Under the pieces are notes generated by a model. It saw nothing but the letters and a program-made list of their open reading frames with translations, had not been told where the DNA came from and did not search any database. A program made the translations under genes and the position numbers. 64,000 bases of DNA from the IMG/VR virus record IMGVR_UViG_3300014836_000691, positions 10,000 to 73,999 of that record; one strand, 5' to 3'. Shown in pieces: positions 29,110-62,204 of the stretch; positions within the stretch are counted from its first letter, which is position 1, and every line of letters begins with the position of its first letter. This DNA is from a virus.

Positions 29110-29116
29110 CCCTTTC

Positions 29117-32373: not shown

Positions 32374-32381
32374 CTACATTT

Positions 32382-39880: not shown

Positions 39881-39883
39881 CCT

Positions 39884-40684: not shown

Positions 40685-40687
40685 TTT

Positions 40688-41401: not shown

Positions 41402-41409
41402 AAAACTGA

Positions 41410-42252: not shown

Positions 42253-42289
42253 GCCCCATTAGTCCTGTTGACAACGAGCAACATTACAA

Positions 42290-42703: not shown

Positions 42704-42705
42704 TC

Positions 42706-43629: not shown

Positions 43630-43635
43630 TGAATG

Positions 43636-43662
43636 GGGGCGTGAAAAACGCCCCTTCTTTTT
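43636..43662 (+). terminator. rho-independent terminator
   Basis: GGGGCGT-GAAAA-ACGCCCC followed by TTCTTTTT. Confidence 0.8.
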
Positions 43663-43702
43663 GCTCGTTGACAAACATTCAAAGATAACCACTATTTTAG
43701 TT

Positions 43703-44443: not shown

Positions 44444-44450
44444 TTAATTT

Positions 44451-45203: not shown

Positions 45204-45212
45204 TGCAACTTT

Positions 45213-45905: not shown

Positions 45906-45909
45906 TTTT

Positions 45910-46524: not shown

Positions 46525-46527
46525 CCT

Positions 46528-47277
46528 ATGGCTACTCGCTCAACAGTCCAAGGTCTTCAGAGCGACCTTTCTAGAAAACTCAGAGACAAGGCTTCTGCAC
46601 TTAGAGAAGAAAATGAGAAGGAAAAGCAGGAGGTAGCCAAGACCGAGCAGGAATACAACGATACGGTTGAACAGGAGCGTATTCGCATTGAGGAAGAAGT
46701 GATGAAGGAGATGAAAGACCGTAAGTGGTCTGTTGATAGAGAAGCCCAAGAAAAGCGAGAAGCGGAAGCGAAACTGGCTGAAGAACAGGCAGTCGCAGAG
46801 GAAAAGCGTGAGCGTGAATTGAAATACAAATGGGAGGGGATGGTGGAGGGCATCGAAAGCAAGATTAAGAAAAACAATAATAAGATTAAGGAAGACTTCC
46901 TTACATTTGGAAGTAAAAACCTCCTTAATAAAGAATTAAAGTTCCCTATCGCTTGGAGTGATACTTTTATGAGAAAAGTTATGAAGGATGTTCCCGATGA
47001 AATAAGGAGTGCTGTGTCCCACTTATTTGAATCAACTTCTGAAGACCGCTTTGATTTTTCTAAGGCTTCTCAAATTGCTTACGCTAATGGGTCTGGAAAA
47101 TCAACGAGCCTTGACGAGCGTATTGAAAACCTTTCCGAGAAGGATGTTCCTTCGGCAGAGGAACACAAAGCAGGTCTTAAGAGCGTCCAAACCTTTGAAA
47201 AGTTCGTTCGTAAGATGCTTGCGTCCACCAAGGAGAAGGATTTGGCTTGGGACGAGGACGGCAATTACAGAGACTAA
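46528..47277 (+). CDS. MATRS-leader protein 12, E/K-rich coiled coil
   Basis: MATRSTVQGLQSD. Confidence 0.85.
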   Translation: MATRSTVQGLQSDLSRKLRDKASALREENEKEKQEVAKTEQEYNDTVEQERIRIEEEVMKEMKDRKWSVDREAQEKREAEAKLAEEQAVAEEKRERELKYKWEGMVEGIESKIKKNNNKIKEDFLTFGSKNLLNKELKFPIAWSDTFMRKVMKDVPDEIRSAVSHLFESTSEDRFDFSKASQIAYANGSGKSTSLDERIENLSEKDVPSAEEHKAGLKSVQTFEKFVRKMLASTKEKDLAWDEDGNYRD

Positions 47278-47281
47278 GTAA

Positions 47282-47708
47282 ATGATGGGCAACAAGACGG
47301 TAGAGCGTCTAAGAGGTATGAACAACAGCGAGTTGAACGCCGTTAGGCGTTCTCTTTCTGAGGTTGTAGCCGAACTCAAACTGGTAGAAAAGAACCTTCG
47401 GGTTTTGGTTAACCAGAACACCCTTGACTTGACACCCACCCTTCTCTCTCATCAAGATACTGGCAAACAAGAACGGCAACACGCCGCCGAGCAGACCTAC
47501 GAGGGCGTTCTAAGAGTCCGAGAGCAGGTCAAGGCACTCCTTATTGACAATCCACAACAATAAATACACAATGAGCAAAAAGAAAGACAACGGCGACAAG
47601 ACTCGCTATGTGATTGACGACACCTCTATCACAAACATCCAAAAAATCCTCAAGGCTATCCAAGAGGGCGTTAAGTCCCCGCCCAAGCCCGACAAGCCCA
47701 AGAAGTAA
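47282..47708 (+). CDS. two small hypothetical proteins without the leader (47282-47563, 47571-47708)
   Basis: ORF track plus hand translation MSKKKDNGDKTRY... Confidence 0.55.
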
Positions 47709-47742
47709 GCGAGGAGCGTCTGGTTGACTAAGCACCAAAAAG

Positions 47743-48810
47743 ATGGCGACCAGAGGCGTTAAAACATCATTCTCTATCCCCAATGTCTTGGCTTCGGATA
47801 CCGTCCAGCCCAAGGACATTAAGGATATGTCGTGGAAAGAGTGGAGTGCCTTAAAGAAGAGTATGGAAGGTCGAGTCTGGCTCGACTATCCCAGCCCCGA
47901 TAATCCCGACCAACAGAAGGCTAGAATGGATGCCTTCAATAAAATTGAGAAAATGGACAGGGAATGGGAGAAGGCAAAGCGTGATAAGGAGAAAGCCGAG
48001 AAAGCGGCTAGAAAGGCTGAGCGTGAGGGCAAGAAGAACGCCAAGGAGCAGGAGCGTAACCGCATCGAGAACCTTGGTAAGACGCTCTCCGAAGAACTGC
48101 TACCCAACGAGGTGGCGTTATCCCAGAACTATTACGACTATCATAAGGGTCAGCAGAGATACTTTGAAGGCACAGTCAGCGATTTAGGAAACGACAGCGT
48201 TAGCAAGGAAGTCAGAGAAAAACTCTATGTAGGGAGCAAATACGGCAATCATACCTACAAGGATAAGGACGGCAATCCTGTCCGTGAAATAATGTATGAG
48301 GTAAGACCCGGCCTCAAAGACTGGTTTGATGTTCAGCCCGATGGAGGCTTTTCGGGTAAACTGAGCAGGGAAGAATTAGCGGCAAAAGCCAAGTCCGCAG
48401 GAATGGAACTGGTTTACCACTATGGTCGTGATTACTATGCCATAATTACCAAGTTGCCGAATGGGACAATACAGAAGGAACTATTCCCGCCAGAAACTTT
48501 CACAAAGAACCAGAAGAAGAGCGATGTTCAAATCGCCCAAGAAGCGGACAGGGACGCCGCAATCAATGTGCAGATGTTCGTGAACAAACTTATCAGCAAG
48601 ACCGAAGAACTGGCTGGTAAGGGCGAGAAGGTTGGCTCAGTCAGATGGGTCGGAGCAGATTCGGGCGACCCTTGGGACGAAAGCACTATCCAAATCGAAC
48701 TGAACGATAAGCGAGTCACTTGGAAGACCAAGATGATTGATAATCGCTCCAAACTGGACAATCACTTTAACCAATGGCCGACCAGACTGGTTGGCGTATC
48801 GGAGATTTAA
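47743..48810 (+). CDS. MATRS-leader protein 13
   Basis: MATRGVKTSFSIPNVLASD. Confidence 0.85.
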   Translation: MATRGVKTSFSIPNVLASDTVQPKDIKDMSWKEWSALKKSMEGRVWLDYPSPDNPDQQKARMDAFNKIEKMDREWEKAKRDKEKAEKAARKAEREGKKNAKEQERNRIENLGKTLSEELLPNEVALSQNYYDYHKGQQRYFEGTVSDLGNDSVSKEVREKLYVGSKYGNHTYKDKDGNPVREIMYEVRPGLKDWFDVQPDGGFSGKLSREELAAKAKSAGMELVYHYGRDYYAIITKLPNGTIQKELFPPETFTKNQKKSDVQIAQEADRDAAINVQMFVNKLISKTEELAGKGEKVGSVRWVGADSGDPWDESTIQIELNDKRVTWKTKMIDNRSKLDNHFNQWPTRLVGVSEI

Positions 48811-48813
48811 TAA

Positions 48814-49680
48814 ATGGCATCGAGAAGTTCATCGTCAACCTTAGCGTCTGATGTTCGTGAAGAGCAGAACAAGAATCCTGCTATTCAGAAAATGCGGAAC
48901 GCATTTAGCACCGTCTTGGGCGAAAAGGATACCGAGGGTAATCGCAACGGTAGGCTGACGGTAAAGATGAGTGCGGAGGAGAGGACTGGTAATCCTAGTT
49001 GGTATCCAGACTCTGATTTGATGGAAAAGGAGTTAGGAGGCGAAATCAAGCCCCTCACCAACCCGAACTTCAAGAATGAGGGCGAGGATTCTATGCACAA
49101 ACTCGCTATGTCTTGGCGAAAGAACGAGTTTGAAAGCATCGCATTTTTCACGAAGGACGGAAAGTTCCTAGGTAAGACGCAATCGGCGTTTGACGACCCT
49201 CATCGGGTCGAAGTTCCCAATCGTCTTGCTTACCGTCTGAGCAAGGAGGACGGCGTTTCCATCCACAACCACCCGCAGAGCGACCTTTCGTTCTCGCACA
49301 CGGACATTCAGACTTGGCTTCAAGAGAATGTAAGTGAAATGATGGTTGTGAGTAAGAACTTTATTTATTCCATCCGACAGAAGGAAGACAACTCTGGTCG
49401 TGGGGCCCCTGTGGGCAAGCGAGACACCGGCCCTAGACCCTACCAGATTGCCAAAGAGTTTATCGACTCTCTGGGTGACGAGGCTGAAATCCGTAAGACG
49501 GTAGACTCTATTGCTAGGGCTGGCTGGATTGAAAAGGGCAAGAAGGTGTATGGGGACGAGGGTGGTGTCCCCAAGCAGATTGTGCCTTTCGCACATTGGA
49601 ACAGAATGTTGCAGAACCTTTCTGAGAAGCACGGCTTCGTCTACAAGGTCTACAGACTGCCCAAAGAACAGCCCGCCTAA
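48814..49680 (+). CDS. MATRS-leader protein 14, JAB/MPN metalloenzyme-like
   Basis: MASRSSSSTLASD; E...SIHNHPQSDLSFSHTD. Confidence 0.75.
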   Translation: MASRSSSSTLASDVREEQNKNPAIQKMRNAFSTVLGEKDTEGNRNGRLTVKMSAEERTGNPSWYPDSDLMEKELGGEIKPLTNPNFKNEGEDSMHKLAMSWRKNEFESIAFFTKDGKFLGKTQSAFDDPHRVEVPNRLAYRLSKEDGVSIHNHPQSDLSFSHTDIQTWLQENVSEMMVVSKNFIYSIRQKEDNSGRGAPVGKRDTGPRPYQIAKEFIDSLGDEAEIRKTVDSIARAGWIEKGKKVYGDEGGVPKQIVPFAHWNRMLQNLSEKHGFVYKVYRLPKEQPA

Positions 49681-49701
49681 GCACCTCATTGGTGCTTCTT
49701 T
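49679..49701 (+). terminator. probable terminator
   Basis: AAGCACC-TCATT-GGTGCTT followed by CTTT. Confidence 0.6.
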
Positions 49702-49741
49702 GCTCTATTGACAAGAACCAAAGGGCAAACCAGCATTCTTT

Positions 49742-50470
49742 ATGGCAACCCGAAGCACAGGTCAAAGTCTTGCGAGCGACATTGGTGGTCTTAACTACAC
49801 CAAGAAATACGAAGATAATCCGTATTCGTCTCCCAGAACCAATACGATTATGCGTATTGCTAGGGCTTCTGACGGTCTTACCCTTGGAAATACGGCGTAT
49901 GACGCTAGAGGAAATCGGGTAGGTTTTATTCGTGAGGATGGAACGATTGATAGTTCCGTTGCCGTCCCCCAGCAATCCCCGAAGGAGTTTGCGGCTACCG
50001 ACAAGGCTATCAAGGCTATGGCTGGCTCGTTTGTGGCTCTAGATAAGGGGATGAGGGTTGGAACACCTCTGGAATTACAGAAACTTGCGGTCAAACTGGC
50101 TAACGATTCTCAGAAGGTCTTGAGAAGCCTTGGATACGGTCTTGATACGGTTTCTTGGAACGACCCTCAGAGTGCTTCGGACTTTATCGCAAGGGTTAAC
50201 AGAGACGGCTTTACCTATGCAAAGGAGGCTTTGAGAAATTACTTTTGGTCGCAAGCAACAGGTCACGCGGCTTACGGACGAGAAATCTATGATGAGCAAG
50301 AGAAGAGTGTAACATTGGCTTCTGGTGCAGGGTCGGCAAGCGACCCAGAGGGTAATGTTGAAATCTACGAAAGCACAATCAACAATCCCAAGGCTAGAGC
50401 CGAGTATGAGTCTACCGTAAGACAGCAAAAGAAGTTCAACAACTACCGAGGTATGGTCAAGGAGGACTAA
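49742..50470 (+). CDS. MATRS-leader protein 15
   Basis: MATRSTGQSLASD. Confidence 0.85.
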   Translation: MATRSTGQSLASDIGGLNYTKKYEDNPYSSPRTNTIMRIARASDGLTLGNTAYDARGNRVGFIREDGTIDSSVAVPQQSPKEFAATDKAIKAMAGSFVALDKGMRVGTPLELQKLAVKLANDSQKVLRSLGYGLDTVSWNDPQSASDFIARVNRDGFTYAKEALRNYFWSQATGHAAYGREIYDEQEKSVTLASGAGSASDPEGNVEIYESTINNPKARAEYESTVRQQKKFNNYRGMVKED

Positions 50471-50473
50471 CCT

Positions 50474-51118
50474 ATGGCAACCCGAAGCACACCACAGGCT
50501 TTAGCAAGTGATGCCGTTCCACGGCAACCAAAGGAAAAGAAGATTTCCGTAGCAGAAAAGCGTCTGGCTTTCAAAAAGATGTATGACTTTTCTGGCGACA
50601 AGGAAACGCAGGGGGTCGCACAAAAACTTGCGGAAGCACCTCAGTCCGAAAGAAAGTTGTTTGTTGATTTCGTCAAAACCATCAAAGCCTATCAAGGCGA
50701 CCAGCATTTCAGAAAGAAGGGGTATCTTGAACGCCGTGAGGCTATTTACAAGGCATACGATGCCCTCCCCCAGTATGCCAAAGATGTCATTGGTAGACCC
50801 GAAGAATCCATAAAAGATTTGGTTCGTGGTGCTACCACAAAGGCTGAGGCTGGATTAAACGGAAAGGTTAACGCTTCTTTTGAGTTAAAGATTACATCCA
50901 CAGGTGTATGGGGCAACGACACAGGAACTCGAAAGGAATACACCGCTAACGAAATCAAATCTTTTGACGATATTATTTCCTTCCACAAGGCTTGGGAAAT
51001 AGCCAGCAATCTAAGTGATACAAGAGTGGTAAAGGGCAGTTCTCTGGACAGAACTGACGAATCTTACCAAAACGAGTTCTTGGTTACCAACATCAAGTGG
51101 AAAGACGGAGTTGTGTAA
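50474..51118 (+). CDS. MATRS-leader protein 16, ART-like
   Basis: MATRSTPQALASD; LVRG, NASF, YQNEFLV. Confidence 0.65.
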   Translation: MATRSTPQALASDAVPRQPKEKKISVAEKRLAFKKMYDFSGDKETQGVAQKLAEAPQSERKLFVDFVKTIKAYQGDQHFRKKGYLERREAIYKAYDALPQYAKDVIGRPEESIKDLVRGATTKAEAGLNGKVNASFELKITSTGVWGNDTGTRKEYTANEIKSFDDIISFHKAWEIASNLSDTRVVKGSSLDRTDESYQNEFLVTNIKWKDGVV

Positions 51119-51121
51119 TTT

Positions 51122-51793
51122 ATGGCTACCCGAAGCACAAACAAGTCGCTTCAATCTGACATTCAAGAACCCATCAGACTTACAGGCAGGTTTGTTCATA
51201 GAACAGTAGGCGAAGAGCCTAACAGAAATGCCGAGCAAGCCGTCAGAACAGATAACGCAATTAGCGAGTTGGAGTCATTAGGCACTCCTAACCCAAACAT
51301 TTCCGCTGAAGACTACGGCAAGCACTTTGATTTTTACACGGAAGACGGCTCTAAGGCTACCTTTGCCGTATCTCGTAATGCGTGGGATGACTCTTTCTAT
51401 CTGAGAACAATTGAAAGCGTATCTGGTAAGGGGGCAGGAACTGCCTTTATGAAAAAGATGGTAGAGATTGCCGACAAATACAATGTCCCGATTAGCCTTA
51501 ATGTAGAGCCGTTTACTAGAGATAGAAATGTTGAATCCACTCAAAAAGCCAGAGAAAGGGCTAATGAGGCTATAAAAAAGAACCGTGAAGAAGCGAAGGC
51601 TAGGGGCGAACTCCCCAAGCCGATGAAAATAGATTTTTCTGGTGGAGTAAAGGTAGTCTCCACGCCTTCATTTGATAAGATTGTAGCGTTCTACGAGCGT
51701 TTTGGCTTTAAGCACACGCCAAAAAGCAAAACTAAGGTGTCTGGCGACTATGTTATGATTCGCCAGCCTAATGGGGGCGAGGAAGAGGCTTGA
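51122..51793 (+). CDS. MATRS-leader protein 17, GNAT acetyltransferase-like
   Basis: MATRSTNKSLQSD; GKGAGTAFMKKMVEIADKY..ISL; VAFYERFGF. Confidence 0.75.
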   Translation: MATRSTNKSLQSDIQEPIRLTGRFVHRTVGEEPNRNAEQAVRTDNAISELESLGTPNPNISAEDYGKHFDFYTEDGSKATFAVSRNAWDDSFYLRTIESVSGKGAGTAFMKKMVEIADKYNVPISLNVEPFTRDRNVESTQKARERANEAIKKNREEAKARGELPKPMKIDFSGGVKVVSTPSFDKIVAFYERFGFKHTPKSKTKVSGDYVMIRQPNGGEEEA

Positions 51794-52281
51794 TGGCGAC
51801 ACGAAGCACACAGGCTAACTTGCTCCGTTCGGACATTAAGGGCTTTGATGCAGTCCCAGTAGAGCGAGGAACATCCAAGGTGAAAGACGGCTATGTAAGG
51901 GTCTATCACCAAACATCCCCAGAGAACATAGAGTCTATTCGCAAGACTGGTTTGCTTGTGGAGAAATCAAGGTCGTCCTCCGAATCCAGAGGAGTTTCCG
52001 TATCTGACACCCCATTCTACGGAAATAACCCTAATCTTGTTACTATCGAACTTCAAATCCCAAAGGAAGTTAAGGCAAAATCCCAAGGTCTTGCCCTTCA
52101 GCAAGACATTCCAGCAAGCGACATACTGGCTATTCACGAACCTTGGCACGACAAGGTTAGATACATTGAACAGAATCCAGTTACGCTGAAAGAAGTTCTA
52201 AACGGAGACTTTGACTATCTTCTTAATGACGAAGAATATGGCAGGGCTGTTCGTTATATTAAAGGAAAGGAACAGGCTTAA
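51793..52281 (+). CDS. MATRS-leader protein 18, His-type ART-like
   Basis: MATRSTQANLLRSD; VYHQTSPENIESIRKTGL; DIPASDI. Confidence 0.65.
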   Translation: MATRSTQANLLRSDIKGFDAVPVERGTSKVKDGYVRVYHQTSPENIESIRKTGLLVEKSRSSSESRGVSVSDTPFYGNNPNLVTIELQIPKEVKAKSQGLALQQDIPASDILAIHEPWHDKVRYIEQNPVTLKEVLNGDFDYLLNDEEYGRAVRYIKGKEQA

Positions 52282-52916
52282 TGGCGACCAGAAGCACAAG
52301 CAAATCCCTCAATTCCGACCTTCCTAGTTCTGGGAGTGAAACATTGTTCAATCTGGCAAACGCAGTTTATTTACACATAAGGGGCAACTGGGGGTATAGA
52401 ACACAGGCAAACCTAGATAGGTTAATCGAAAACAAAAAGGACATAGTGAGGCTGTTCAAGCAACTTCCAGAAGACATAAAGAAGGCGTGTTCTGGCGAAG
52501 CGGATGGGAAGCCTCTTTATCGTGGCGTGAGCGTGGATACCCTTAAAGAGTTTGGGGAGTGGAATAACGGAAAGTTTGTTTATGGATTCACGGACAGCCT
52601 TAACACGGCTAGAAGGTTTGCCAACGGACACACGGAAAACGGCTCAAGAGTCCTTACATTTGACGACATAGACTCGTATGGGGGCGTTATTGACCTCAAA
52701 AAACTGTCGAATGTAATCAAAGACTACAACAAAGATAAGCCGTTAGGCGACCATATCAAGGATTTTGGTGGATTTTCCGATGCCTACGGAGAGACTGAAT
52801 ACTTGGTTTACGACATTAAGTTTAAGACCAGACCAGACGGCAAGTTCTACTCAGATAAACCGTATGAGCAAGGGGCTTGGGATAACTACGAAAGGTTCAA
52901 CCCCTTGAACGCTTGA
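52281..52916 (+). CDS. MATRS-leader protein 19, ART-like
   Basis: MATRSTSKSLNSD; LYRGV, FTDSLNTARRFA, GETEYLV. Confidence 0.7.
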   Translation: MATRSTSKSLNSDLPSSGSETLFNLANAVYLHIRGNWGYRTQANLDRLIENKKDIVRLFKQLPEDIKKACSGEADGKPLYRGVSVDTLKEFGEWNNGKFVYGFTDSLNTARRFANGHTENGSRVLTFDDIDSYGGVIDLKKLSNVIKDYNKDKPLGDHIKDFGGFSDAYGETEYLVYDIKFKTRPDGKFYSDKPYEQGAWDNYERFNPLNA

Positions 52917-52919
52917 TTT

Positions 52920-53549
52920 ATGGCGACTAGAAGCGGGAACAGAAACGGAAGCGAGTCCCTTCGCTCTGACCTTTCTCAAGGCGGTGACTCGGATGCAAGG
53001 ATGAGAGAGCGAGTGCTTCGTTCTGCAATAGGTAGCAAGGCTGAGGCTAAGAGCATTAGCGACTTCACCAAGGAACTGGAATACTACCAGTCCAACCGCA
53101 GAAACAGGGATAAAAGCCGTGTTATTAAGGCTTTCAATGAACTCCCATCAGCCGTTCAGAAATACATTTCTGAGCCAGCCAATAAGATTAAAGAACTCTA
53201 CCGTGGCTTTGACAATAATCCCGACAGGCAGGGCGTAGCGTCCTTTACGGACAACTACCAAGCGGCTCTCAACTTCGGAAGCAAGGTCATTAGGTCAAAA
53301 GACTTAGAAAAGTTTGACGGAATAATCAACACGCAGAAGTTTATGAAACTGCTGGATACGAGTGGCAAGGCGGGCGGTTCGCTTGCCGATTTGGTCGCCC
53401 CAGAGCATAGGTTGCGTAGGGACGAGGGTGAATATATAGTGTATGGGGGAGTATATAAAAAGAACATTGGAGACAAAGACTGGATGGAAGAAAACTCCCG
53501 CTTTATGATGGAAAACTACGGCGTTAAAACCCCAAAGGTTAAGCCGTAG
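52920..53549 (+). CDS. MATRS-leader protein 20, ART-like
   Basis: MATRSGNRNGSESLRSD; LYRGF, ASFTDNYQAALNFG, DEGEYIV. Confidence 0.7.
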   Translation: MATRSGNRNGSESLRSDLSQGGDSDARMRERVLRSAIGSKAEAKSISDFTKELEYYQSNRRNRDKSRVIKAFNELPSAVQKYISEPANKIKELYRGFDNNPDRQGVASFTDNYQAALNFGSKVIRSKDLEKFDGIINTQKFMKLLDTSGKAGGSLADLVAPEHRLRRDEGEYIVYGGVYKKNIGDKDWMEENSRFMMENYGVKTPKVKP

Positions 53550-54045
53550 GCAACTTCCGCAGTAGCGGGTTGTGGACATTGAAATACCAGTCGGCTAGCA
53601 GGAGTGCGTCTGCGGTCTGACCAGTCAAGTCCTTCCGAACCCCATATGTCTGCTTGGCGTATTCCGTAAGGAGACGCTTCCACTCGCTGTGCTTCATCTC
53701 GCCACGCTTAATGCCCTTCTCGTCTCTTATGTGCCGTTGCCAGTCCTGCGGGGTAACCTCGATAGGCTTAATGTCCTTAGCCGCCAGATAGCCCAAGGTG
53801 ATGCCAAAGGCTTCAAACAAGACCGCTATGCGGGAAGACGGAATCATAGTCCCCATAAACCTTGGGGGACGCTCGATAACCACGCTACTGATTTCTTTGG
53901 TTTCCGCAAAATGCCTGTCCAAGACAGGCTTCAAGGTTTCCATCGTATCCCCTGTGAGTTTCTCTAAGACGAACTTATTGGTTTCCAAGTCCCAGACACA
54001 GATGCCTCCGTTAGCCCCAGAGTCGATGCAGATTAACTTACTCAT
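53539..54045 (-). CDS. RuvC-like Holliday junction resolvase
   Basis: ICIDSGANGG, VVIE, VTPQDWQ, ADALLLA. Confidence 0.85.
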   Translation of the reverse strand: MSKLICIDSGANGGICVWDLETNKFVLEKLTGDTMETLKPVLDRHFAETKEISSVVIERPPRFMGTMIPSSRIAVLFEAFGITLGYLAAKDIKPIEVTPQDWQRHIRDEKGIKRGEMKHSEWKRLLTEYAKQTYGVRKDLTGQTADALLLADWYFNVHNPLLRKLPTA

Positions 54046-54510
54046 TTATCGTGGCAGGGTTTCTTTGAGTTGGGATGCGATTACCGAAATAGCCCTATGC
54101 GTCCGCTTCGGCAAGGACGAATACCTGCAATCGTGTTCTTCGATGAAGCACGAAGGGCCTCTGGCATAAGCCGCATAAACTTCCCAGTAAGTGGGCTTTC
54201 TTCCTAGGTGCTTTTCTAAGACCCATCCACACCACCGAAGATAATCTATGGCGTATTGTTTGGAAACAAACCTGTCGTGGGCGTAAGACCACGGATACCG
54301 ATAACGCTTTTCCTTGGCACGAAGGGTGTTTACCTGCTTCCAAGCGATTTCCCACATCTGATAAGCCCCTCTAGCCTTGCCAGAGTCGCCCACAGCCTGT
54401 GGGTCATTATTGGATTCTGCAACAGCCACCGCATCAGCAAGGCTGTGATAATTAACACCTTGGCAAATCAAGGGGATAAAGAAGAAGATACTAGTTAGGT
54501 AGGTCTTCAT
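54046..54510 (-). CDS. lysozyme-fold / lytic transglycosylase with signal peptide (candidate endolysin)
   Basis: MKTYLTSIFFFIPLICQG signal; AESNNDPQAVGDSGKARGAYQM. Confidence 0.75.
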   Translation of the reverse strand: MKTYLTSIFFFIPLICQGVNYHSLADAVAVAESNNDPQAVGDSGKARGAYQMWEIAWKQVNTLRAKEKRYRYPWSYAHDRFVSKQYAIDYLRWCGWVLEKHLGRKPTYWEVYAAYARGPSCFIEEHDCRYSSLPKRTHRAISVIASQLKETLPR

Positions 54511-54796
54511 CGCCTTCTGTTTCTTCAAAAGCGTCTTGGATACGCTCCAATGAGGCATCTAAGTCCTCTTCGGAACTTCCTTCACACTCGATAACTAGAA
54601 TTGCCTCAACCATCCGTGCAAGCCTCTGGGCTTCTTGACGATTGTTCTGGGCAAGGGCGATATTCAGAGCGAACCAGATAAGGTTTGTGGCGGCCGCTAC
54701 TGAGCAGGAAATGTTATTGTCGTCTACTGGAGAGCAGAGGGGTTCGACTGTTCGACCACCAATTTCTTGGTTCTCAAAGACGGAAATCTGTTTCAT
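54491..54796 (-). CDS. hypothetical protein
   Basis: ORF track. Confidence 0.55.
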   Translation of the reverse strand: MKQISVFENQEIGGRTVEPLCSPVDDNNISCSVAAATNLIWFALNIALAQNNRQEAQRLARMVEAILVIECEGSSEEDLDASLERIQDAFEETEGDEDLPN

Positions 54797-54868
54797 AGTG
54801 AAGAGGTTAGGGGTTTCTTGGGCTAAGACAAGATTAAAGATTGACGACAGTCAACCCTGTGTTAGCGT

Positions 54869-55075
54869 ATGGGGATGGACAACGACACAAACGACAACCC
54901 GCTAGCACCCGACCAGAACCTCACCCTCAAAGGCAAAGGCATCTGGGTAAACCCTGTCGCAAAGCGACTTGCCCTTGGCTGGGCTAGGGACTTGTCCAAC
55001 GAACTGGCTTGGGAAATTGAAAATATCAAAGAGAACGAAAGAATCCGCTTGACTGGTGACTCGGACAAGGCATAA
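54869..55075 (+). CDS. hypothetical protein
   Basis: ORF after the TTGAC motif at 54841. Confidence 0.5.
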   Translation: MGMDNDTNDNPLAPDQNLTLKGKGIWVNPVAKRLALGWARDLSNELAWEIENIKENERIRLTGDSDKA

Positions 55076-55096
55076 CACGACCTCCCACAACACACT

Positions 55097-55909
55097 ATGA
55101 ACCCAGATAACAACGAAATCATCGAGGTCAGCAACAACGCTGTCCTATCCAACAGCAACGCTATCTACAACAAGATTACCGACCCCATTCAAGCGATTGA
55201 AAAGTTGGGCGAGATGATTTGGGGTAGCGGTATGTTCGGTTGCGTGAAGCCCGAACAGGGGATGGTGCTGGCTATGACCTGTCTCGCAGAAGGCAAAGCC
55301 CCGCTGGAACTCGCCAAGACCTACCATATCATCGAAGGTAAACTGACGATGCGTTCAGACGCTATGCTGGGACGCTTCCTGTCTACTGGTGGTAAGGTGA
55401 AGTGGCTGGTTCGCACCGACAAGGAAGTGAAGGCTCTCTGGTCTAAGGACGACTCGGAGATTGAGATTGGCGTTACGCTGGACGAAATGACGAAGAACGG
55501 CGTGGCTATTGGCAAGGACAACAAACTCAAGGTCAACTGGCAGAGATTCCCTCGCCAGATGCTTACGGCTCGTTGCATCAGCGAAGCGGTGCGTCTCCTT
55601 GCTCCTCAAATCGTCTCTGGTATCTATACGCCCGAAGAGGTGCAGGACTTCTCGTCCGCAAACCAGTCTCTCCCCGCTAAGGTCGTCCAAGCCCTTCCTG
55701 CTCCTGTGCAGGAGGTCAGCGACCCCAAGGCAGAGGTGGTTAGCCGTCTCTCGGCTTTGCTCGACAAGTATGAACCCAAGGCAACTGAATACCTCATTGT
55801 CAAAGGCTACATTAAGAACGGTCAGACCTATCGTGACCTTGACGCAATCACGGCTCAGCGTATACTAGGCAACCCCTCCAAGATTATTGGTATTCTGGAG
55901 GCGGTCTAA
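55097..55909 (+). CDS. RecT/Red-beta-like single-strand annealing protein
   Basis: SGMFG, YHIIEGKL, NWQRFPRQMLTARCISEAVR, GIYTPEEVQDF. Confidence 0.8.
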   Translation: MNPDNNEIIEVSNNAVLSNSNAIYNKITDPIQAIEKLGEMIWGSGMFGCVKPEQGMVLAMTCLAEGKAPLELAKTYHIIEGKLTMRSDAMLGRFLSTGGKVKWLVRTDKEVKALWSKDDSEIEIGVTLDEMTKNGVAIGKDNKLKVNWQRFPRQMLTARCISEAVRLLAPQIVSGIYTPEEVQDFSSANQSLPAKVVQALPAPVQEVSDPKAEVVSRLSALLDKYEPKATEYLIVKGYIKNGQTYRDLDAITAQRILGNPSKIIGILEAV

Positions 55910-55948
55910 TTTCCACAACACACGACACACACACAACACGCACTAACT

Positions 55949-56887
55949 ATGTCCGAAACCGAACTCTACAAGACCCAGACGGAGGTCACCGAACGCCAGA
56001 CCAAGCAGGATGCTCCTGCTATCGCACAGGGGGTGTATGACAACATCCAAGCAGATGATTACCACCGTATCTTCGGTCTAACAAAATCTGGTCTTATGGA
56101 AATCCGCAAGTCCCCCGCCCACTTCTGGCATTGGATGAACTCTCCAGCCGCCGAAAGCACTAGGGCTATGAACATTGGCACGGCTTGCCACACGCTCGTC
56201 TTTGAACCCCATAAGTGGAACGAAGAGATTTCGGTTATTCCTGCTGATGCTCCCAAGAAGCCCACCAAGGCTCAACTGGAAGCCAAGAAGCCTAGCGAAG
56301 ACACGCTTGCCGCCATCAAGTGGTGGGAGGACTTCCGTTCGACCTCCAAGGGTCGTGCCACTATCACGGCTGAAGAAGAAGTCCAATGCCGTGCCTTGGC
56401 TGAGGCTGTGAGAACGAATGAGGAAGTGGCGAGTCTGCTTTCCCACCCCGAAGCGAAGGCTGAGGTGTCTATCGTCTCTGTTGAGAACATCAAGGGACTC
56501 GACCTAGTGTGCAAAGGTCGTTGCGACCTTCTGACCAAGGATAAGGACGGCAACCTTGTGATGGTTGACCTCAAGACCACGGAGGATGCCTCGCCAGACG
56601 GTTTCGGTAAGAGTTTTATGAAGATGGGATACTGGATGCAGGCCGCACACTATCTTGCCATCGCTCACAAGTCTGGTCTGGATGTTAAGAAGTTCATCTT
56701 CGTTGCGGCTGAGAAGAACCCGCCCTACTCCACCGCCCTCTACTCGCTCACGCAAGCGGACTTGGAAAAGGCTTGGCGTATCAGAACTCGTCTGATGGAG
56801 ACACTTTCTGATTGCATCGCTCGCAATAACTTCCCAGCCTACTCGAAAGGCGTTCACGAATTGTCGATGCCCTCTTGGATTTCCTAA
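55949..56887 (+). CDS. RecE/ExoVIII-like PD-(D/E)xK exonuclease (DUF3799 type)
   Basis: YH..GLTKS, GTACHTLVFEP, KGRCD, VDLKTT, YWMQAAHY. Confidence 0.9.
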   Translation: MSETELYKTQTEVTERQTKQDAPAIAQGVYDNIQADDYHRIFGLTKSGLMEIRKSPAHFWHWMNSPAAESTRAMNIGTACHTLVFEPHKWNEEISVIPADAPKKPTKAQLEAKKPSEDTLAAIKWWEDFRSTSKGRATITAEEEVQCRALAEAVRTNEEVASLLSHPEAKAEVSIVSVENIKGLDLVCKGRCDLLTKDKDGNLVMVDLKTTEDASPDGFGKSFMKMGYWMQAAHYLAIAHKSGLDVKKFIFVAAEKNPPYSTALYSLTQADLEKAWRIRTRLMETLSDCIARNNFPAYSKGVHELSMPSWIS

Positions 56888-56921
56888 CCAACCCAGATAA
56901 ACAACCAACCCAACAAAGCAA

Positions 56922-57338
56922 ATGAGCAAGTTCAAAGTAGACCTCAATTCCTCTGACCGTCCCGAAAGGTTCACGGACGAAGGCGAATACACCGTGACCA
57001 TCCAGAGCGTGGAGCGTAACCTCACCCCGCAGGGTATCGAGAAAGCCCTTATCATCTTCTCTGACGACAGGAATCGCTCCTGCAAGGACGACCTTCTGAA
57101 CAAGGATACCGTCTACTGGCGACTCAATCAACTGATTGTCGCTACTGGTATGAAAGTGCCTCACGGCACGGAGTTCGATTTCTCCAAGTCGGGTGAGTTC
57201 TTCAACTTCGTCAAGTCGTTCGTTGGTATGCGTCTCGCTGTGACGCTCAAGAAGGACTCCTACGAGAAGAACGGCGAAACCAAGACCTTCCTCAAGGTCG
57301 CCAAGTATTCCAAGCCGAAGGAAGACAACCCCTTCTAA
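56922..57338 (+). CDS. putative single-stranded DNA-binding protein (DUF669-like)
   Basis: EGEYTVTI motif, acidic C-terminal EDNPF, follows RecET-like genes. Confidence 0.7.
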   Translation: MSKFKVDLNSSDRPERFTDEGEYTVTIQSVERNLTPQGIEKALIIFSDDRNRSCKDDLLNKDTVYWRLNQLIVATGMKVPHGTEFDFSKSGEFFNFVKSFVGMRLAVTLKKDSYEKNGETKTFLKVAKYSKPKEDNPF

Positions 57339-57367
57339 TTTGTTGGTTGGCATAGTCGTTGTTGGCT

Positions 57368-57398
57368 GGAGGGCGGTGCGAAAGTGCCGCCCTCCTTT
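57368..57398 (+). terminator. rho-independent terminator
   Basis: GGAGGGCGGTGC-GAAA-GTGCCGCCCTCC followed by TTT. Confidence 0.75.
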
Positions 57399-57439
57399 AT
57401 GCCCATTCACTACGGTTGACTTGCGACAAGGTTGCAAGG

Positions 57440-57856
57440 ATGCCCTGCACTTGCATAAATTGTCAAAAGGACTTCAAGACAAAGCACAGGGCTGTTGCTA
57501 AATATTGCTCTAACGCTTGCCAAGCGGACTTTCAGCGTAAGAAGATAATCAAGGACTGGCTGGAGGGTAGGTTTAGTGGGAACAGGGGAAACAACGCCAC
57601 GGTTTCTCGCTCGGTTAAATACTATATGTTTGAACTTAATAGGCACAAGTGCCAGAAGTGTGGATGGGGCGTGAAACATCCAAAGAGTGGCAAACCACCG
57701 CTTCAAGTTCACCACAAGGACGGCAACTCTCAGAACTCAAAGATATCTAACCTTGAATTGCTCTGCCCGAACTGTCATTCCCTTACCGACAACTTTGGTA
57801 GTCGCAATCGTGGTCGAGGTCGCCACTCTCTGCGTAGGTTGACTAGACCCAAATAA
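57440..57856 (+). CDS. HNH endonuclease
   Basis: CQKCG, LQVHHKDGN..N..ISNLELLCPNCHS. Confidence 0.9.
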   Translation: MPCTCINCQKDFKTKHRAVAKYCSNACQADFQRKKIIKDWLEGRFSGNRGNNATVSRSVKYYMFELNRHKCQKCGWGVKHPKSGKPPLQVHHKDGNSQNSKISNLELLCPNCHSLTDNFGSRNRGRGRHSLRRLTRPK

Positions 57857-57860
57857 TACC

Positions 57861-58553
57861 GTGGCTACCAGAAGCGTATCACAGACCGCCTTGCAATCGG
57901 ACAAGATTGGAGTGATGACACTTCCAGATGGAAGCACACAGCAAATCAGAGTTCCTGCTGGCATTATGAAGGCTGTTTTTGGTGGCAGAGTCGTGGAGTT
58001 GCCAGCGAAGCCTATCGTTAAAGTCCCCAAGAAGGGTGATGCAAAGGTGTTAAATGACTCCCTAGGCAAAGAGGTCAAGGAAGTTAACCGAATTATTGGA
58101 TTGTCCAGAGTCGAGAACGCTATTATCTATCTGAACGGAAAGCAAGTCCTGCTTCGGCAGGGCAACGACACCACTATCAAGTTTACCAAAGCAGAGATGA
58201 AGATGATGAAGGGTGCTTTAGTCACCCACAACCACCCTTACGGCACATCCTTTTCGAGAGCAGATGTGCTTATGGTTCGCCAAAACGGAATCAAGGAACT
58301 CCAAGCCGTCTCCACCAGAGAGGGTTTGCTCTACAGGATGAACCCACCCAAGGACGCTAAGTTCTGGAAGACGGATATGGAAACCATCTTTGCCGACCAC
58401 GAACTCTTCCGTGCGGCTATCTATAAGACTTATGGGTATGAAGGGGAGAACATTTCCAACGCTCCGACTGAAGTCCACGCCGCGGCAATCAATCAGTCGA
58501 TAAAAGCACTTGACTTGAAATACCAACTCGGCTACACAATCGAAAACCTATGA
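57861..58553 (+). CDS. MATRS-leader protein 21, JAB/MPN-like
   Basis: MATRSVSQTALQSD; VENA...VTHNHPYGTSFSRAD. Confidence 0.75.
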   Translation: MATRSVSQTALQSDKIGVMTLPDGSTQQIRVPAGIMKAVFGGRVVELPAKPIVKVPKKGDAKVLNDSLGKEVKEVNRIIGLSRVENAIIYLNGKQVLLRQGNDTTIKFTKAEMKMMKGALVTHNHPYGTSFSRADVLMVRQNGIKELQAVSTREGLLYRMNPPKDAKFWKTDMETIFADHELFRAAIYKTYGYEGENISNAPTEVHAAAINQSIKALDLKYQLGYTIENL

Positions 58554-58714
58554 GCATACCCAAGAAGTTCAATCCAAACAAACTGGATACTAAGCAAGAC
58601 CTGTTCCCAAACAAGAAGCAGAAGCAGGAAGTCCCGATTAAGAACCTTCCTCCGAAAATGAGTCCGCAGGAAATCCTGCGTAATTGCGACCCTAAGAAAA
58701 AGGACTGCAAGTAA
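58550..58714 (+). CDS. 54-aa basic hypothetical protein
   Basis: ATGA overlap; translated by hand. Confidence 0.45.
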   Translation: MSIPKKFNPNKLDTKQDLFPNKKQKQEVPIKNLPPKMSPQEILRNCDPKKKDCK

Positions 58715-58717
58715 AAC

Positions 58718-58739
58718 GAGGGGCGAAAGCCCCTTTTTT
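58718..58739 (+). terminator. rho-independent terminator
   Basis: GAGGGGC-GAAA-GCCCCTT followed by TTTT. Confidence 0.85.
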
Positions 58740-58787
58740 GTGCCTTGCGTTCCAGTTGACAACAGGCAAAAACATAACCCTACGAAT

Positions 58788-59567
58788 ATGGCTACCCGCA
58801 CATCTTCTAACCAGTTAGGCTCTAACCCGCTTCCCCCGCCCCCAGCCCCGCCTACGCCCGAAGAACTGGCTGAACTTCGCCGTAAGGGTCTTATTGGCTC
58901 TGGTGAGGCTACGGAGATTATGATGCGAACCGAAGGCCCTGCTCGCAACCCCGAAAGACCAACAGGCACTACTATCGAGGTTGACGGCCCTCTTCGCACT
59001 CCCAACAACGACCCGACTATCGAAGTTGACGGCCCTCTTCGTATCCCCAGAGAGCCTATCGACCCGACTGTTGAGACACGCTATCCAACGGCATTTGAAT
59101 TAGGCTCGGATACCAGCGGTGGCTGGCGACCCTCCAAGCAACTGGAAGAAATCTACACTCGCAGACTTGAGGCTGATGGGCTTAGCCGTTCTGACGCTCA
59201 GTCGGCTATGGAGGCTATCCTTTTGACCAAGAAGCCGACCCCGCCAGAGCGTGTCAAAGAAATCGCTACGGAAACCTTCCGTCAACTTGGCGGTGGCAGA
59301 CTGCGTATGATTACAGGTGCTAAGGACATTTATTCCCAAGACTTGGGTGATGGCGATGCCGCCTTAACCTTTGCCCTGCCCGCTGGTAAGGGTAATCGCT
59401 ACGATGTTACCGTTCCTTACAATAGCAAAGATGACACTTACGGTCTGACCATCACAAAGAGAAATCGTGTGGTTTACGACAACGAGAAGGGCTTTGATAT
59501 CGGTCAAGTTATGGACACCATCGAAAGGGAAACCAAGGTCTACCTTACGCTGGGAAGAAGGGGCTAA
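58788..59567 (+). CDS. MATRS-leader protein 22, Pro-rich N-terminal region with internal LGSD
   Basis: MATRTSSNQLGSN; two TIEVDGPLR repeats; C-terminal IATETFRQLGGGRLRMITGAK domain. Confidence 0.8.
   Translation: MATRTSSNQLGSNPLPPPPAPPTPEELAELRRKGLIGSGEATEIMMRTEGPARNPERPTGTTIEVDGPLRTPNNDPTIEVDGPLRIPREPIDPTVETRYPTAFELGSDTSGGWRPSKQLEEIYTRRLEADGLSRSDAQSAMEAILLTKKPTPPERVKEIATETFRQLGGGRLRMITGAKDIYSQDLGDGDAALTFALPAGKGNRYDVTVPYNSKDDTYGLTITKRNRVVYDNEKGFDIGQVMDTIERETKVYLTLGRRG
58971..59048 (+). repeat. 45-nt-period direct repeat in coding sequence
   Basis: ACTATCGARGTTGACGGCCCTCTTCG at 58971 and 59016. Confidence 0.85.
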
Positions 59568-59573
59568 TAACCG

Positions 59574-61070
59574 ATGGCGAGCCGAAGCGGTAGCAAGGCT
59601 ATGACAGCCAGTCTGATGGCTGATATCGCCGTTATGAACGCCCAGAAGGGCGTTATGGAGTTCCCTACTGCATCCCGAATCCCAAGGGTGACAATCGAAA
59701 CGGCTGAGGAGAGGCAGGAGTGGCCGGGCTTGCTTGATAGGATTTACAAGCAGTTAGACGGCCCTATGTTTGATTCGGACTTCCAAATCACGGATGAGGT
59801 TCGGGAAGACTTTAAAGAAATGTTTGGTTCTTTTAAGTTAGAATCCGAAGAATACAAAAAGAGCCTAAGAGACAACCCAGACCCAAGCATAAAGTCTTGG
59901 GACAGACCGCATAGGTGGGACGGCAAGACCTACGATTTTACAGGTCACCCTCAAGACAAGGCCACGGACGAGCAAATAAGAGAGTTTATTGGTTATTTGC
60001 GAGATGAGTTAGAGAAAGAGGCGAGTAATGTTCTCGATATTATTGCCAGAGAAGAAAAGGGAGAATCTTTGCCTGTATACTTGCTTGGAAGAGACAGGAG
60101 TTCGGCAGAAAGAAAAGAAGCGTTGGAGAAACTTCGCAACGAATCGGAAGTCAAGGAACTGATTTACCGTGGGCAGGATGCGTATGAGGTCTTAGATGCC
60201 AAGAAAGCGGCTGAGAAAATTAAAGCCGATAGGCGGGAAGACCGTTCGTCTGGCGGTGAACACTACAAGAGAGGTGTTGGATACACAGGCTCTGAGGGTG
60301 ACGGACTTTACCACCTCACGCCTCACGGCGGTTATGCCGCTGGCTACGCATCCAGTTCAGAGCAACCCACTACAGGTGTCATTGAGGGCGTTCTTGTTTC
60401 CAAGCGTCTGTTAGACCTTACTCCAATCACCGCTAGCAACCATATTGATTACAGCAGGGGTAATCGCAAGTTCTGGGATAGGTGGGAAAAGTATTACGGC
60501 AAGGGCAACGCCCCTAGCATTGACCATAGTTGGGAAAGAAGTGATGCGGCTCGACCTGCTTGGGATGATGTGACAGCGTTTGGTAAGCAGAAATACACAG
60601 GCAAAGCCTTTGGTGTATATTCGGAAAAAGAGCCTTGGTCTGGTGGTGGTGCTAACGGATACACAATGAGGGAAGCCTTTGGCATTAAAGACGCAGAGTC
60701 TCTGTCGAAGTGGAAGTGGTCTGAGAAAATCGCAAAAACTATCGGTGAGAACTACCAGCGTATTCACGGCAAACCAATGCCAGAGAATCTTGGAGTTCCC
60801 AAGGGTTCTGATTACACCTTGCAGGAGAGTATATACAACGATTTGCAGAAGCGTAGTGGTCTTACCTACCAACTTCTTAAGACCCCCACCTTTAAGCGGG
60901 TTATGAAAGAGGCTAAGTTTGATGCCGTTAAGTATTTGGACTATGGGGTTGGAAGAACGACTCCACTTGGAACTCCTGCTTACGGTGCGACCAAGCCTTC
61001 CCAGTTTAAGTCTTACTTTGGCGACAAGAAGGTGGATGAAAAGTCGCCTAATATGTTTGACGCTGACTGA
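59574..61070 (+). CDS. MATRS-leader protein 23, ART-like (polyvalent-protein type)
   Basis: MASRS...LMAD; IYRGQ, GDGLYHLTP..YAAGYA, LLDLT, FDAVKY, PSQFKS. Confidence 0.65.
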   Translation: MASRSGSKAMTASLMADIAVMNAQKGVMEFPTASRIPRVTIETAEERQEWPGLLDRIYKQLDGPMFDSDFQITDEVREDFKEMFGSFKLESEEYKKSLRDNPDPSIKSWDRPHRWDGKTYDFTGHPQDKATDEQIREFIGYLRDELEKEASNVLDIIAREEKGESLPVYLLGRDRSSAERKEALEKLRNESEVKELIYRGQDAYEVLDAKKAAEKIKADRREDRSSGGEHYKRGVGYTGSEGDGLYHLTPHGGYAAGYASSSEQPTTGVIEGVLVSKRLLDLTPITASNHIDYSRGNRKFWDRWEKYYGKGNAPSIDHSWERSDAARPAWDDVTAFGKQKYTGKAFGVYSEKEPWSGGGANGYTMREAFGIKDAESLSKWKWSEKIAKTIGENYQRIHGKPMPENLGVPKGSDYTLQESIYNDLQKRSGLTYQLLKTPTFKRVMKEAKFDAVKYLDYGVGRTTPLGTPAYGATKPSQFKSYFGDKKVDEKSPNMFDAD

Positions 61071-61112
61071 TTTTGAGGTTGAAACACACCCTGTTCTGGG
61101 TAGAACCTTTTA

Positions 61113-62182: not shown

Positions 62183-62204
62183 CTAGCGTCAAAGGTTGCT
62201 AGGT

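Follow-up and report, generated by a model that had tools for sequence, protein, structure and literature searches.

A short N-terminal leader shared by many unrelated proteins of an uncultured tailed phage, including JAB-like and GNAT-fold cargos, is a possible capsid-targeting propeptide

The DNA analysed here, referred to as the window, is a stretch of 64,000 nucleotides that comprises bases 10,000-73,999 of the 73,999-nt virus record IMGVR_UViG_3300014836_000691 (G000); the first 10 kb of this record are designated L001. Twenty-six genes of the record, 24 of them open reading frames (ORFs) in the window and two in the preceding 10 kb, encode proteins that start M-A-[TS]-R-[STGR] and are referred to as leader genes; together they occupy 19,425 nt, or 26% of the record. 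Two predicted JAB-like metallohydrolases and a predicted GNAT-fold protein are among their products, which are referred to as cargos. The reading that we favour, and to which we give an even chance of being right, is that the leader is a capsid-targeting propeptide resembling the capsid targeting sequence (CTS) of phage T4, which would be cut after an acidic residue and would deliver a fast-changing arsenal of enzymes.

The recurrence of the leader was far above chance. The DNA pattern of the leader start, ATGGCNACNMGNWSN, was present 20 times on the forward strand of the 73,999-nt record and was absent from the reverse strand and from both backward-read controls. Two elements make up the leader: the M-A-T-R-S start and, after a variable linker, the motif L-x-S-D. 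L-x-[SA]-D was found within residues 1-25 in 22 of the 26 leader proteins, compared with 2 of 88 other crude ORFs, and it occurred six times in the other 5,799 residues of these 26 proteins. In those 22 proteins the Asp is residue 13, 14, 17 or 19, which corresponds to a leader of 13-19 aa. Ala2, Thr3, Arg4 and Ser5 are each specified by three to five codons, including both AGA and CGN for Arg4 (AGA 8, CGC 6, CGA 6, CGT 4) and both AGC and TCN for Ser5 (AGC 11, TCT 5, TCC 2, TCA 2, AGT 1). Since the codons drift while the residues stay, the leader appears to be selected as a peptide. It combines a basic, Ser/Thr-rich composition with an acidic end, no hydrophobic core of the Sec/Tat type was found in the leaders, and those of the 57861 and 51122 proteins (genes are named by their start positions) were disordered in AF2 models (pLDDT <50 at residues 1-16 and 1-32, respectively). 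The array genes are packed stop-to-start (TAA, 2-4 nt, ATG), and no Shine-Dalgarno-like sequence was detected in the 30 nt upstream of 24 leader starts. There was a single multi-member paralogue family among the 26 leader proteins, and NCBIfam gave zero matches for all 26. A literature search of titles, abstract starts and selected passages found no published description of the leader or of such arrays.

The preliminary description of this DNA had attributed a MATRS-type leader to three ORFs, an upstream Glu plus HNHP-x3/4-SFS-x2-D and a JAB/MPN fold to two of these, and GKGAGT...FYERFGF and a GNAT fold to the other. The leaders and the motifs were all present as described, and the two fold assignments were borne out by the structure and profile comparisons reported below. 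The N-termini read MASRS, MATRS and GTG-ATRS, in each case followed by L-x-S-D; the leaders are MASRSSSSTLASD (13 aa; 48814..48852, + strand) in JAB-like cargo 1, MATRSTNKSLQSD (13 aa; 51122..51160, + strand) in the GNAT cargo and (GTG)ATRSVSQTALQSD (14 aa; 57861..57902, + strand) in JAB-like cargo 2. The last of these hinges on a GTG start codon. Its close relatives P0003 and P0004 are called 18 residues further in by the databases, and its orthologues in two related phages (G001 and G005) have an ATG start and a leader of their own.

JAB-like cargo 1 (48814..49680, + strand; 288 aa, ATG start) has its domain at approximately residues 80-281, with E107, H151, H153, S161 and D164 as the predicted site, and JAB-like cargo 2 (57861..58553, + strand; 230 aa, GTG start) has its domain at approximately residues 68-229, with E85, H123, H125, S132 and D135. 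Judged by sequence, the JAMM catalytic motif, E ... H-x-H-x(n)-S-x-x-D, is complete in both: HNHPQSDLSFSHTD lies at residues 151-164 of the 48814 protein with Glu107 upstream, and HNHPYGTSFSRAD at residues 123-135 of the 57861 protein with Glu85 upstream. The residues of this site were invariant in the relatives. E107, H151, H153, P154, F160, S161 and D164 were the sole invariant columns of the 48814 alignment (A4, 48 sequences), and E85, H123, N124, H125, P126, F131, S132 and D135 were invariant in the 57861 alignment (A2, seven database relatives and two phage orthologues). The second His and the Ser are separated by seven residues in 48814, six in 57861 and ten in the G001 and G005 orthologues.

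The AF2 model of the 57861 protein (mean pLDDT 80.3, pTM 0.74) was confident from residue 50 onward. Foldseek placed JAMM/MPN structures at the top, with PfJAMM1 (5ld9; E 2.8e-3, probability 0.98) followed by Sst2/AMSH, Rpn11 and RadC, and no row had an E value of 1e-3 or better. A second look with VIA returned JAB/MPN entries in all of the top 50 places (best 5lda, Z 7.4, rmsd 3.6 over 102 residues). When 48,161 PDB chains were searched by VIA independently of Foldseek, 19 chains had a Z of at least 5 and the top 17 were all JAB/MPN; the best unbiased match was 5ld9 (JAMM1; Z 7.2, rmsd 3.6 over 102 residues), with Rpn11 at Z 6.6, Sst2 at 6.4, Cap3 at 6.3 and RadC at 6.1. Deaminases, which have the same superfold, ranked after the JAB/MPN structures at Z 5.3 or below. 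Because the matches were consistent and the catalytic motif is complete, the JAB/MPN assignment of 57861 is considered sound. Comparison of the 48814 and 57861 families by hhalign gave a probability of 99.2% and an E value of 2.4e-19 over 168 columns, from which the two proteins appear to be homologous across the whole domain, including its C-terminal helical part; pairwise BLAST aligned the motif stretch only. Through this homology a JAB fold is also supported for 48814, and the model and profile comparisons support the prediction that the two cargos are homologous zinc hydrolases of the JAB/MPN fold.

The 48814 protein has three close relatives, and its profile matched 58 proteins in 1.84 billion representatives. 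Fifty-six relatives were scanned; the head-protein domain Phage_Mu_F was present in seven, and three passed the threshold for the Pfam RadC-like JAB. One of them, P0024 (1,232 aa; hhalign 98.8%), consists of MuF, a DRAT-type ADP-ribosyltransferase and a RadC-JAB. The Pfam RadC model PF04002 (gathering score 22.1 bits) gave 11.4 bits for 48814 (E 0.31, below threshold) and no match for 57861, and the 48814 profile (A4) found RadC 2qlc in the PDB at E 0.15 over the motif region only. PDB sequence searches with the single proteins 48814 and 57861 and with profiles A1-A5 gave nothing significant, the best being this RadC match and RimI 5isv (E 0.72). Among PHROGs there was no match above noise for 48814, 51122 or 57861. 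No relative of 48814 was found in a search of viral contigs, and the A2 profile found only G001, G005 and one similar contig there; a protein cluster look-up for ten relatives gave no informative names. In sequence the JAB-like cargos lean towards the RadC clade. Like RadC-like JAB proteins (PF04002, 2qlc), which are found in phages and mobile elements, they have HNHP...S..D with an upstream Glu, and the structural match to RadC was at Z 6.1-6.2 with an rmsd of 3.2-3.4 over 93-94 residues. They differ from RadC in having F-S in place of P-S before x-x-D and a second His followed by a spacer of variable length (6, 7 or 10 residues), in an additional helical part at the C-terminus, which ends in a conserved G-[FY]-x-Y strand, and in failing to reach the Pfam model.

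Many members of the wider JAB-like family, from unrelated sources, had N-termini such as MARG, MARS, MSRGF, MGGR and MAKGSGG. Gly/Ser/Arg-rich N-termini (MGGRxxG, MAKGSGGTRG, MGRGRGG) were seen in many solo members, the relatives of 48814 P0030, P0040, P0049, P0063, P0064, P0071, P0074 and P0076 among them. There are hints that a short N-terminal tag may occur on the JAB-like family far beyond this phage group.

The GNAT cargo (51122..51793, + strand; 223 aa, ATG start) contains the loop sequence SGKGAGTA (residues 101-108) and, nearer its C-terminus, FYERFGF (190-196). In alignment A3 (12 sequences) G102-A108 (GKGAGTA), F190, Y191 and F194-F196 were invariant. The AF2 model had a pLDDT of 71.5, and the top 50 Foldseek rows were all GNAT (best E 1.7e-3, probability 0.99). 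With VIA, 23 chains had a Z of at least 8; the best was 2fl4 (Z 9.1, rmsd 3.1 over 105 residues), the anti-CRISPR acetyltransferase AcrVA5 was at Z 8.5 (94 of 95 residues aligned) and RimI at 8.0-8.1. Against the Pfam model Acetyltransf_7 the score was 15.5 bits (cut-off 27), and sub-threshold matches were obtained for nine of the 12 family members (best E 1.3e-3). A GNAT fold with an acetyl-CoA loop is therefore supported as a model-based prediction. The protein resembles AcrVA5 (6iuf), Naa50 and RimI in its fold (Z 8.0-9.1), its loop of the G-x-G-x-G type and its C-terminal FYExxGF. It departs from typical GNATs in its score below the Pfam threshold and in a helical insert of about 50 residues (approximately 133-182) that separates strand five from the final helix and is absent from P0020 and P0021; the acetyl-CoA loop motif, which we take to be Q/R-x-x-G-x-G/A, also has Ser in place of the usual Gln or Arg. 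In a natural variant from a lake-water DNA run (X3), a block of 132 nt inside this insert (window 51535-51668) was swapped for diverged sequence of the same length.

A link between the leader and the phage head was suggested by comparison with related phages. G000 is a tailed phage, and the head module in L001 encodes a lambda-family portal (PF05136, E 4.5e-36), a head-maturation protease of family S49 (PF01343, Peptidase_S49, E 2.4e-15; phrog_53, E 1e-51), a charged, scaffold-like protein of 525 aa and a P22-coat-like major capsid protein (MCP). Thirty viral contigs encode an MCP that is 64-86% identical to that of G000. The exact MATRS start was absent from five related records, which had leaders of their own instead: 23 genes of G001 (MCP 84% identical) start MARGYSQSRSE or nearly so, 16 genes of G005 (MCP 85%) start MARG[SNQ]NSxxGRxARSE, and other loci have MARGNNQSxSSVRSE (four in a row), MPTRNG..LQSE, MPTRNGSNSLQSE, MPTRTGGSSANSLQSE or MARGQSRAMSE. 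These dialects, seen in relatives with an MCP 84-86% identical to that of G000, all finish in S-E or S-D. In the GNAT and 57861 families, each orthologous cargo bears the dialect of the phage that encodes it. The GNAT orthologues have MATRSTN..LQSD, MPTRNGNSASQTLRSD, MARGYSQARxE, MPTRNG[GS]RSEA and MSMGRAARSE, and those of the 57861 family in G001 and G005 have MSRGY...ARSE and MSRGS...ARSE. The tag thus seems to co-evolve within a genome, as would be expected if it were read by a phage-encoded partner.

The dialect also extends to the head module. A 216-aa leader protein is encoded between the scaffold-like and MCP genes (L001 5294-5944), the position of lambda gpD, and across the related phages the protein in this position shares the dialect start (MATRR/MATRG, MARGF/MARGG, MARSY, MAGRTFY, MAGGGRTYY); the ESM Atlas gave nothing usable for it. 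One to three more leader genes lie just 3' of the MCP gene. Distant relatives (G002, G003 and L019-L031) have only two leader-type proteins, the head-module protein and a JAB-like protein, both starting M[AG]GR[ST](F)Y. The large terminase and portal genes flank the JAB-like gene in these relatives, a position often occupied by minor head proteins of the MuF/gp7 type. These distant JAB-like genes, with M[AG]GR[ST]Y...P-T-E, are at G003 10586-11404 (-) and G002 32465-33376 (-), and also in L019, L022, L023 and L031. No large array was found in records G002, G003 and G004, for which a regular expression detected two, two and three leader genes, respectively (two of the three in G004 beside a PAPS reductase gene). 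A JAB-like gene was present in all three large-array phages (G000, G001 and G005) and in G002 and G003.

The main array (39191..53549, + strand) consists of 18 tandem leader genes with a few small leaderless ORFs between them; the genes start at 39191, 39884, 40688, 41410, 42706, 43703, 44451, 45213, 45910, 46528, 47743, 48814, 49742, 50474, 51122, 51793, 52281 and 52920. Two further leader genes, 31651 and 32382, lie at 31651..33056 (+ strand). A second leader group (57861, 58788, 59574 and 62205; 57861..62642, + strand), broken by a phrog_12251 gene and a Mom-like gene, is directly upstream of the packaging/head module position, judged from relatives. The leaderless small ORFs within the main array are at window 42290-42703, 47282-47563 and 47544-47708, and the one at 42290-42703 is conserved in G005 (41266-41634).

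Several leader proteins are candidate relatives of ADP-ribosyltransferases (ARTs) of the R-S-E type, the triad of which is R, S-x-S/T and E-x-E. The ART-like paralogue at 50474..51118 (+ strand; LVRG ... SFE ... QNE) is directly upstream of the GNAT cargo, two others are at 52281-52916 and 52920-53549 (+ strand; YRG ... [SG]FT ... ExE), another with a GTG start is at 42706..43629 (+ strand), and one is encoded by a leader gene 3' of the MCP gene (h7894, L001 7894-8601); the paralogues in the window were assigned to the family by BLAST and with alignment A5, which has R, S and E-x-E (or Q-x-E) columns. In A5 (six sequences) R95, F109 and E171 were invariant within (Y/V/S)RG, [SG]F and (E/Q)-x-E contexts. 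Pfam DRAT matched the 52281 and 52920 paralogues below threshold (E 0.14), hhalign gave no match between the ART-like family and the DRAT region of P0024, and the ESM Atlas structure neighbours of the family, DRAT and T4 ModB (both TM 0.51), are leads only.

Cargo turnover was high, with 34 of the 68 leader proteins from four phages being singletons without a BLAST partner. Only four families were common to three phages, namely the ART-like and JAB-like 57861 families, the 62205 family and that of the head-module protein. A cassette consisting of one leader gene (51793..52281, + strand; 162 aa) was missing from the X3 contig, which is approximately 97-99% identical to the window and skips from 51792 to 52281 (488 nt), with eight letters that fit both sides. 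The joint falls inside ATGGCGAC, which is common to the two neighbouring leader starts (flanks 51782-51800 and 52270-52288). Since this variant lacks exactly one cassette, whole cassettes appear to be gained or lost at the leader.

In the favoured reading, the MATRS part of the leader would bind a component of the assembling procapsid, such as the scaffold or core, the portal or the protease, and the S49 head-maturation protease would remove the tag at its acidic end. The mature enzymes would remain in the head and, once they had entered the next host along with the ejected DNA, would act ahead of any phage gene expression; packaging, cleavage, ejection and the enzyme substrates are all inferred. 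The propeptides of T4 internal proteins, as described in two papers (PMC9026906, PMC3012670), are 10-19 residues long; targeting lies in their N-terminal part, and an acidic residue precedes the processing site at the other end. In the same accounts the CTS addresses otherwise unrelated internal proteins to the prohead core, and the packaged proteins, including the ADP-ribosyltransferase Alt, are ejected with the DNA and vary between related phages. The present leader is likewise a short N-terminal propeptide (13-19 aa) on unrelated, fast-changing proteins of one phage, as in the CTS/IPI-III/Alt system; it is likewise in two parts, an address followed by an acidic end, and the ART-like cargo parallels Alt. 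A role in early host takeover or anti-defence, reported for the T4 internal proteins (PMC9026906, PMC3012670), may apply here. Several features of the leader fit the T4 CTS model, namely its length, two-part build, disorder, acidic end, presence on head-module proteins and concerted change. So do the head protease, the ART-like cargo and the fast turnover, the last of which also suits arms-race effectors like the internal proteins of T-even phages.

There are also clear differences from T4. The leader sequence is unrelated to the CTS, and the head module is of the lambda/P22 type with an S49 protease in place of the gp21 family and a gp22-type core. The tagged genes number 26 (26% of the record) compared with a handful in T4, several dialects occur among close relatives, the tag is common to a head-module protein, and packaging is here a predicted step. 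The leader system may therefore work like the CTS without being a member of the T4 system. Short disordered terminal peptides also direct proteins into phage-derived shells or tubes in encapsulins (cargo-loading peptides) and in Photorhabdus virulence cassettes and extracellular contractile injection systems (PVC/eCIS; N-terminal packing signals of payloads); these machines are different from the phage head considered here, and encapsulin signals are mostly C-terminal.

The preliminary description had also compared the array with a polyvalent protein broken up into units that each have a tag, and this analogy gained support from the MuF-fused relatives, from P0024 and from the published domain repertoire. 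MuF-fused phage effectors are said to have been described by Jamet and colleagues in 2017. Polyvalent proteins, according to Iyer et al. (2017; PMC5512222), include RadC-JAB, ART and GNAT domains, are predicted to be delivered with the DNA, and typically have GNAT adjoining ART. The window has a similar arrangement, since GNAT 51122 lies beside ART-like genes, with 50474 upstream and 52281 and 52920 downstream; the repertoire of RadC-like JAB, ART and GNAT is likewise that of polyvalent and MuF-fused effectors, and distant JAB-like relatives are MuF-fused. Polyvalent proteins carry two to fifteen domains per polypeptide, whereas here the domains are encoded one per ORF, with a start, a stop and a leader for each, and no MuF domain was found in the window. 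From the MuF-fused JAB relatives and the matching domain repertoire, the array may be regarded as a polyvalent arsenal in the form of separate genes, each with its own address, and the presence of Phage_Mu_F in seven of 56 JAB-like relatives strengthens the link to the virion.

A number of observations weigh against capsid delivery. The head protease is S49 and not of the T4 gp21 family, and we know of no S49 head protease that cuts after Asp or Glu. L-x-S-D (in G000) and RSE (in G001 and G005) were absent from the portal, the protease, the scaffold-like protein and the MCP, so no second substrate corroborates the predicted cut site. In T4, one report (PMC9026906) indicates that processing is blocked when Asp is at the last position of the CTS. 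Most leader genes sit among replication/recombination genes (ParB ... RuvC, RecT, Exo, SSB), outside the late operon, and some database homologues (P0002; P0005-P0009) are without a leader as called. The protein in the gpD position might instead decorate the outside of the head, a role that would not suit an interior address. With regard to the enzymes themselves, the JAB structural matches were middling, the best Z of 7.2-7.4 being under the VIA caution line of 8, and 48814, 57861 and 51122 all scored below the Pfam gathering scores for JAB or GNAT models.

A related proposal, which we hold only tentatively and consider to have somewhat less than an even chance, treats the leader as an evolvable address label of a freshwater phage lineage that is read by the phage's own head-assembly machinery. 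The label would change in concert on more than 20 genes and on the head-module protein as the lineage diverges, and any gene that gained it, through recombination at the leader start, would join an ejected set of enzymes that occupies a quarter of the genome. Few cargos are retained throughout the lineage, the JAB-like metallohydrolase being one of them, and in basal members it is in the head module; it may thus belong to the machinery itself, perhaps as the leader peptidase, and not be an anti-defence effector. The leader could instead be a peptide address or switch unconnected with the capsid, serving timed degradation or activation, chaperone docking or sorting inside or out of the host cell, possibly with the JAB-like metallohydrolase itself as the leader peptidase. 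This is unlikely in our judgement, although it would accommodate the location of most leader genes among early/middle-type genes, the JAB-like gene in G000, G001, G005, G002 and G003, the end motif that was not found in head proteins and the basic, Ser/Thr-rich, disordered leader with its acidic end. It sits poorly with the lack of a Sec/Tat hydrophobic core, with an N-terminus shared by the head-module protein and leader genes inside the structural module, and with MuF-fused relatives that point to the virion; moreover, characterised JAB peptidases cut after a Gly-Gly tail rather than S-D or S-E.

Two other explanations place the function of the conserved start in the nucleic acid. That the shared 5' end is a DNA-level recombination handle for cassettes, with the peptide as a by-product, is very unlikely. 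The natural variant without exactly cassette 51793-52281, with its joint inside ATGGCGAC, the stop-to-start gene packing and the high cargo turnover would all follow from such a handle, but only about 8-15 nt are common at the X3 joint, the many synonymous codon differences in the leader fit peptide selection and would not be tolerated by a recombination site, L-x-S-D is kept at a variable distance, and orthologous cargos have differing leaders. That codons 2-5 act as a translation-initiation enhancer, in a host independent of Shine-Dalgarno sites, is the least probable explanation: the lack of Shine-Dalgarno-like sequences upstream of the 24 starts and the phage tRNA-Ala(TGC), tRNA-Thr(TGT) and tRNA-Arg(TCT) are in its favour, but leader codon choice is variable, close phages use very different dialects, L-x-S-D or R-S-E is conserved 10-19 residues in, and most other phage genes are leaderless. 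Reversal of ubiquitin-like antiphage conjugation by the JAB cargos, which the preliminary description had put forward, is compatible with capsid delivery but is not favoured, and it seems decidedly improbable that these proteins strip ubiquitin-like modifiers of host defence systems of the Bil, Bub or CBASS Cap2 type. The complete JAMM catalytic site and the structural neighbours Cap3 (9ild, Z 6.3), a bacterial ubiquitin-like-modifier deubiquitinase (8tyy, Z 5.5) and BubCD (9ea4, Z 6.3) argue for it; RadC scored equally (Z 6.1-6.2) with the lowest rmsd (3.2-3.4), was the sole Pfam JAB family touched by the JAB-like cargos or their relatives, and has HNHP as its type of motif. The structure search cannot separate the JAB clades, the Z values of Cap3, Rpn11 and RadC being tied, and the sequence affinity is to the RadC clade; a de-ubiquitinase role is disfavoured for these reasons. 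In PMC5512222 it is argued that the RadC clade has no groove to accommodate the ubiquitin tail, and nucleic acids are predicted to be its substrates. A literature search of titles and abstract starts found no paper on a phage-packaged JAB that reverses ubiquitin-like conjugation.

The scale of the array and the leader dialects that co-vary with the head-module protein stand out. If the leader does direct proteins to the capsid, they would form the largest and most modular collection of virion-delivered proteins apart from those of jumbo and T4-like phages, delivered by a different head machinery (lambda-type portal, S49 protease), and the splitting of a polyvalent protein into tagged genes would be a natural alternative to fusion. 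Each phage would then encode approximately 26 candidate early-acting effectors, mostly of unknown fold and including the JAB-like, GNAT and ART-like proteins, and the leader would be a short, portable and lineage-specific loading peptide, a candidate means of placing foreign proteins inside phage heads. The differing dialects of closely related phages amount to a natural experiment from which the receptor might be identified by covariation.

The record is 72% complete by CheckV, and the full genome is probably about 85 kb, since proteins identical or 87-99% identical to those of the window sit on contigs of 84-85 kb. Tail genes are located at approximately 6.1-19.1 kb of the window, which also encodes RecT, exonuclease, SSB, HNH, RuvC and SLT. 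The nearest cultured phage is Verrucomicrobia phage P8625, the MCP of which is only 35.5% identical; no leader and no JAB or GNAT relative was found in P8625 when 24 of its 52 annotated coding sequences were translated and searched. The leader array was present in freshwater and lake metagenomes. Short contigs from two freshwater metatranscriptome libraries (X8 and X9) were 100% alike to window 44310-47516, 49163-50202, 52414-52640 and 55281-56978, which cover array genes, including 48814, as well as RecT, exonuclease and SSB; DNA carry-over is possible, so these contigs are no proof of transcription, and the stretches that they leave uncovered are uninformative.

An array of 11 tRNA genes (window 28294-29190) specifies Gln, Thr, Ala, Glu, Trp, Asn, Pro, Arg-TCT, Lys, Leu and Met, and an Rfam scan detected tRNAs only. 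Among these are tRNAs for leader residues 2-4, namely Ala, Thr and Arg(AGA), possibly by chance. A lone tRNA-Gly (window 61123-61198) overlaps the 5' part of ORF 61113-61544, which probably starts 3' of the tRNA because its family match begins only at residue 33. Two Mom-like genes (window 3208-4128 and 61541-62182; PF25680, E 7.7e-12 and 1.5e-36), a PAPS-reductase-like gene (window 27154-28254; phrog_2302, E 4e-79) and a ParB-like gene (window 29249-29872; phrog_2159, E 6.5e-63) may together make up a set for DNA modification. Leader genes directly adjoin the PAPS-reductase gene in G001 and G004.

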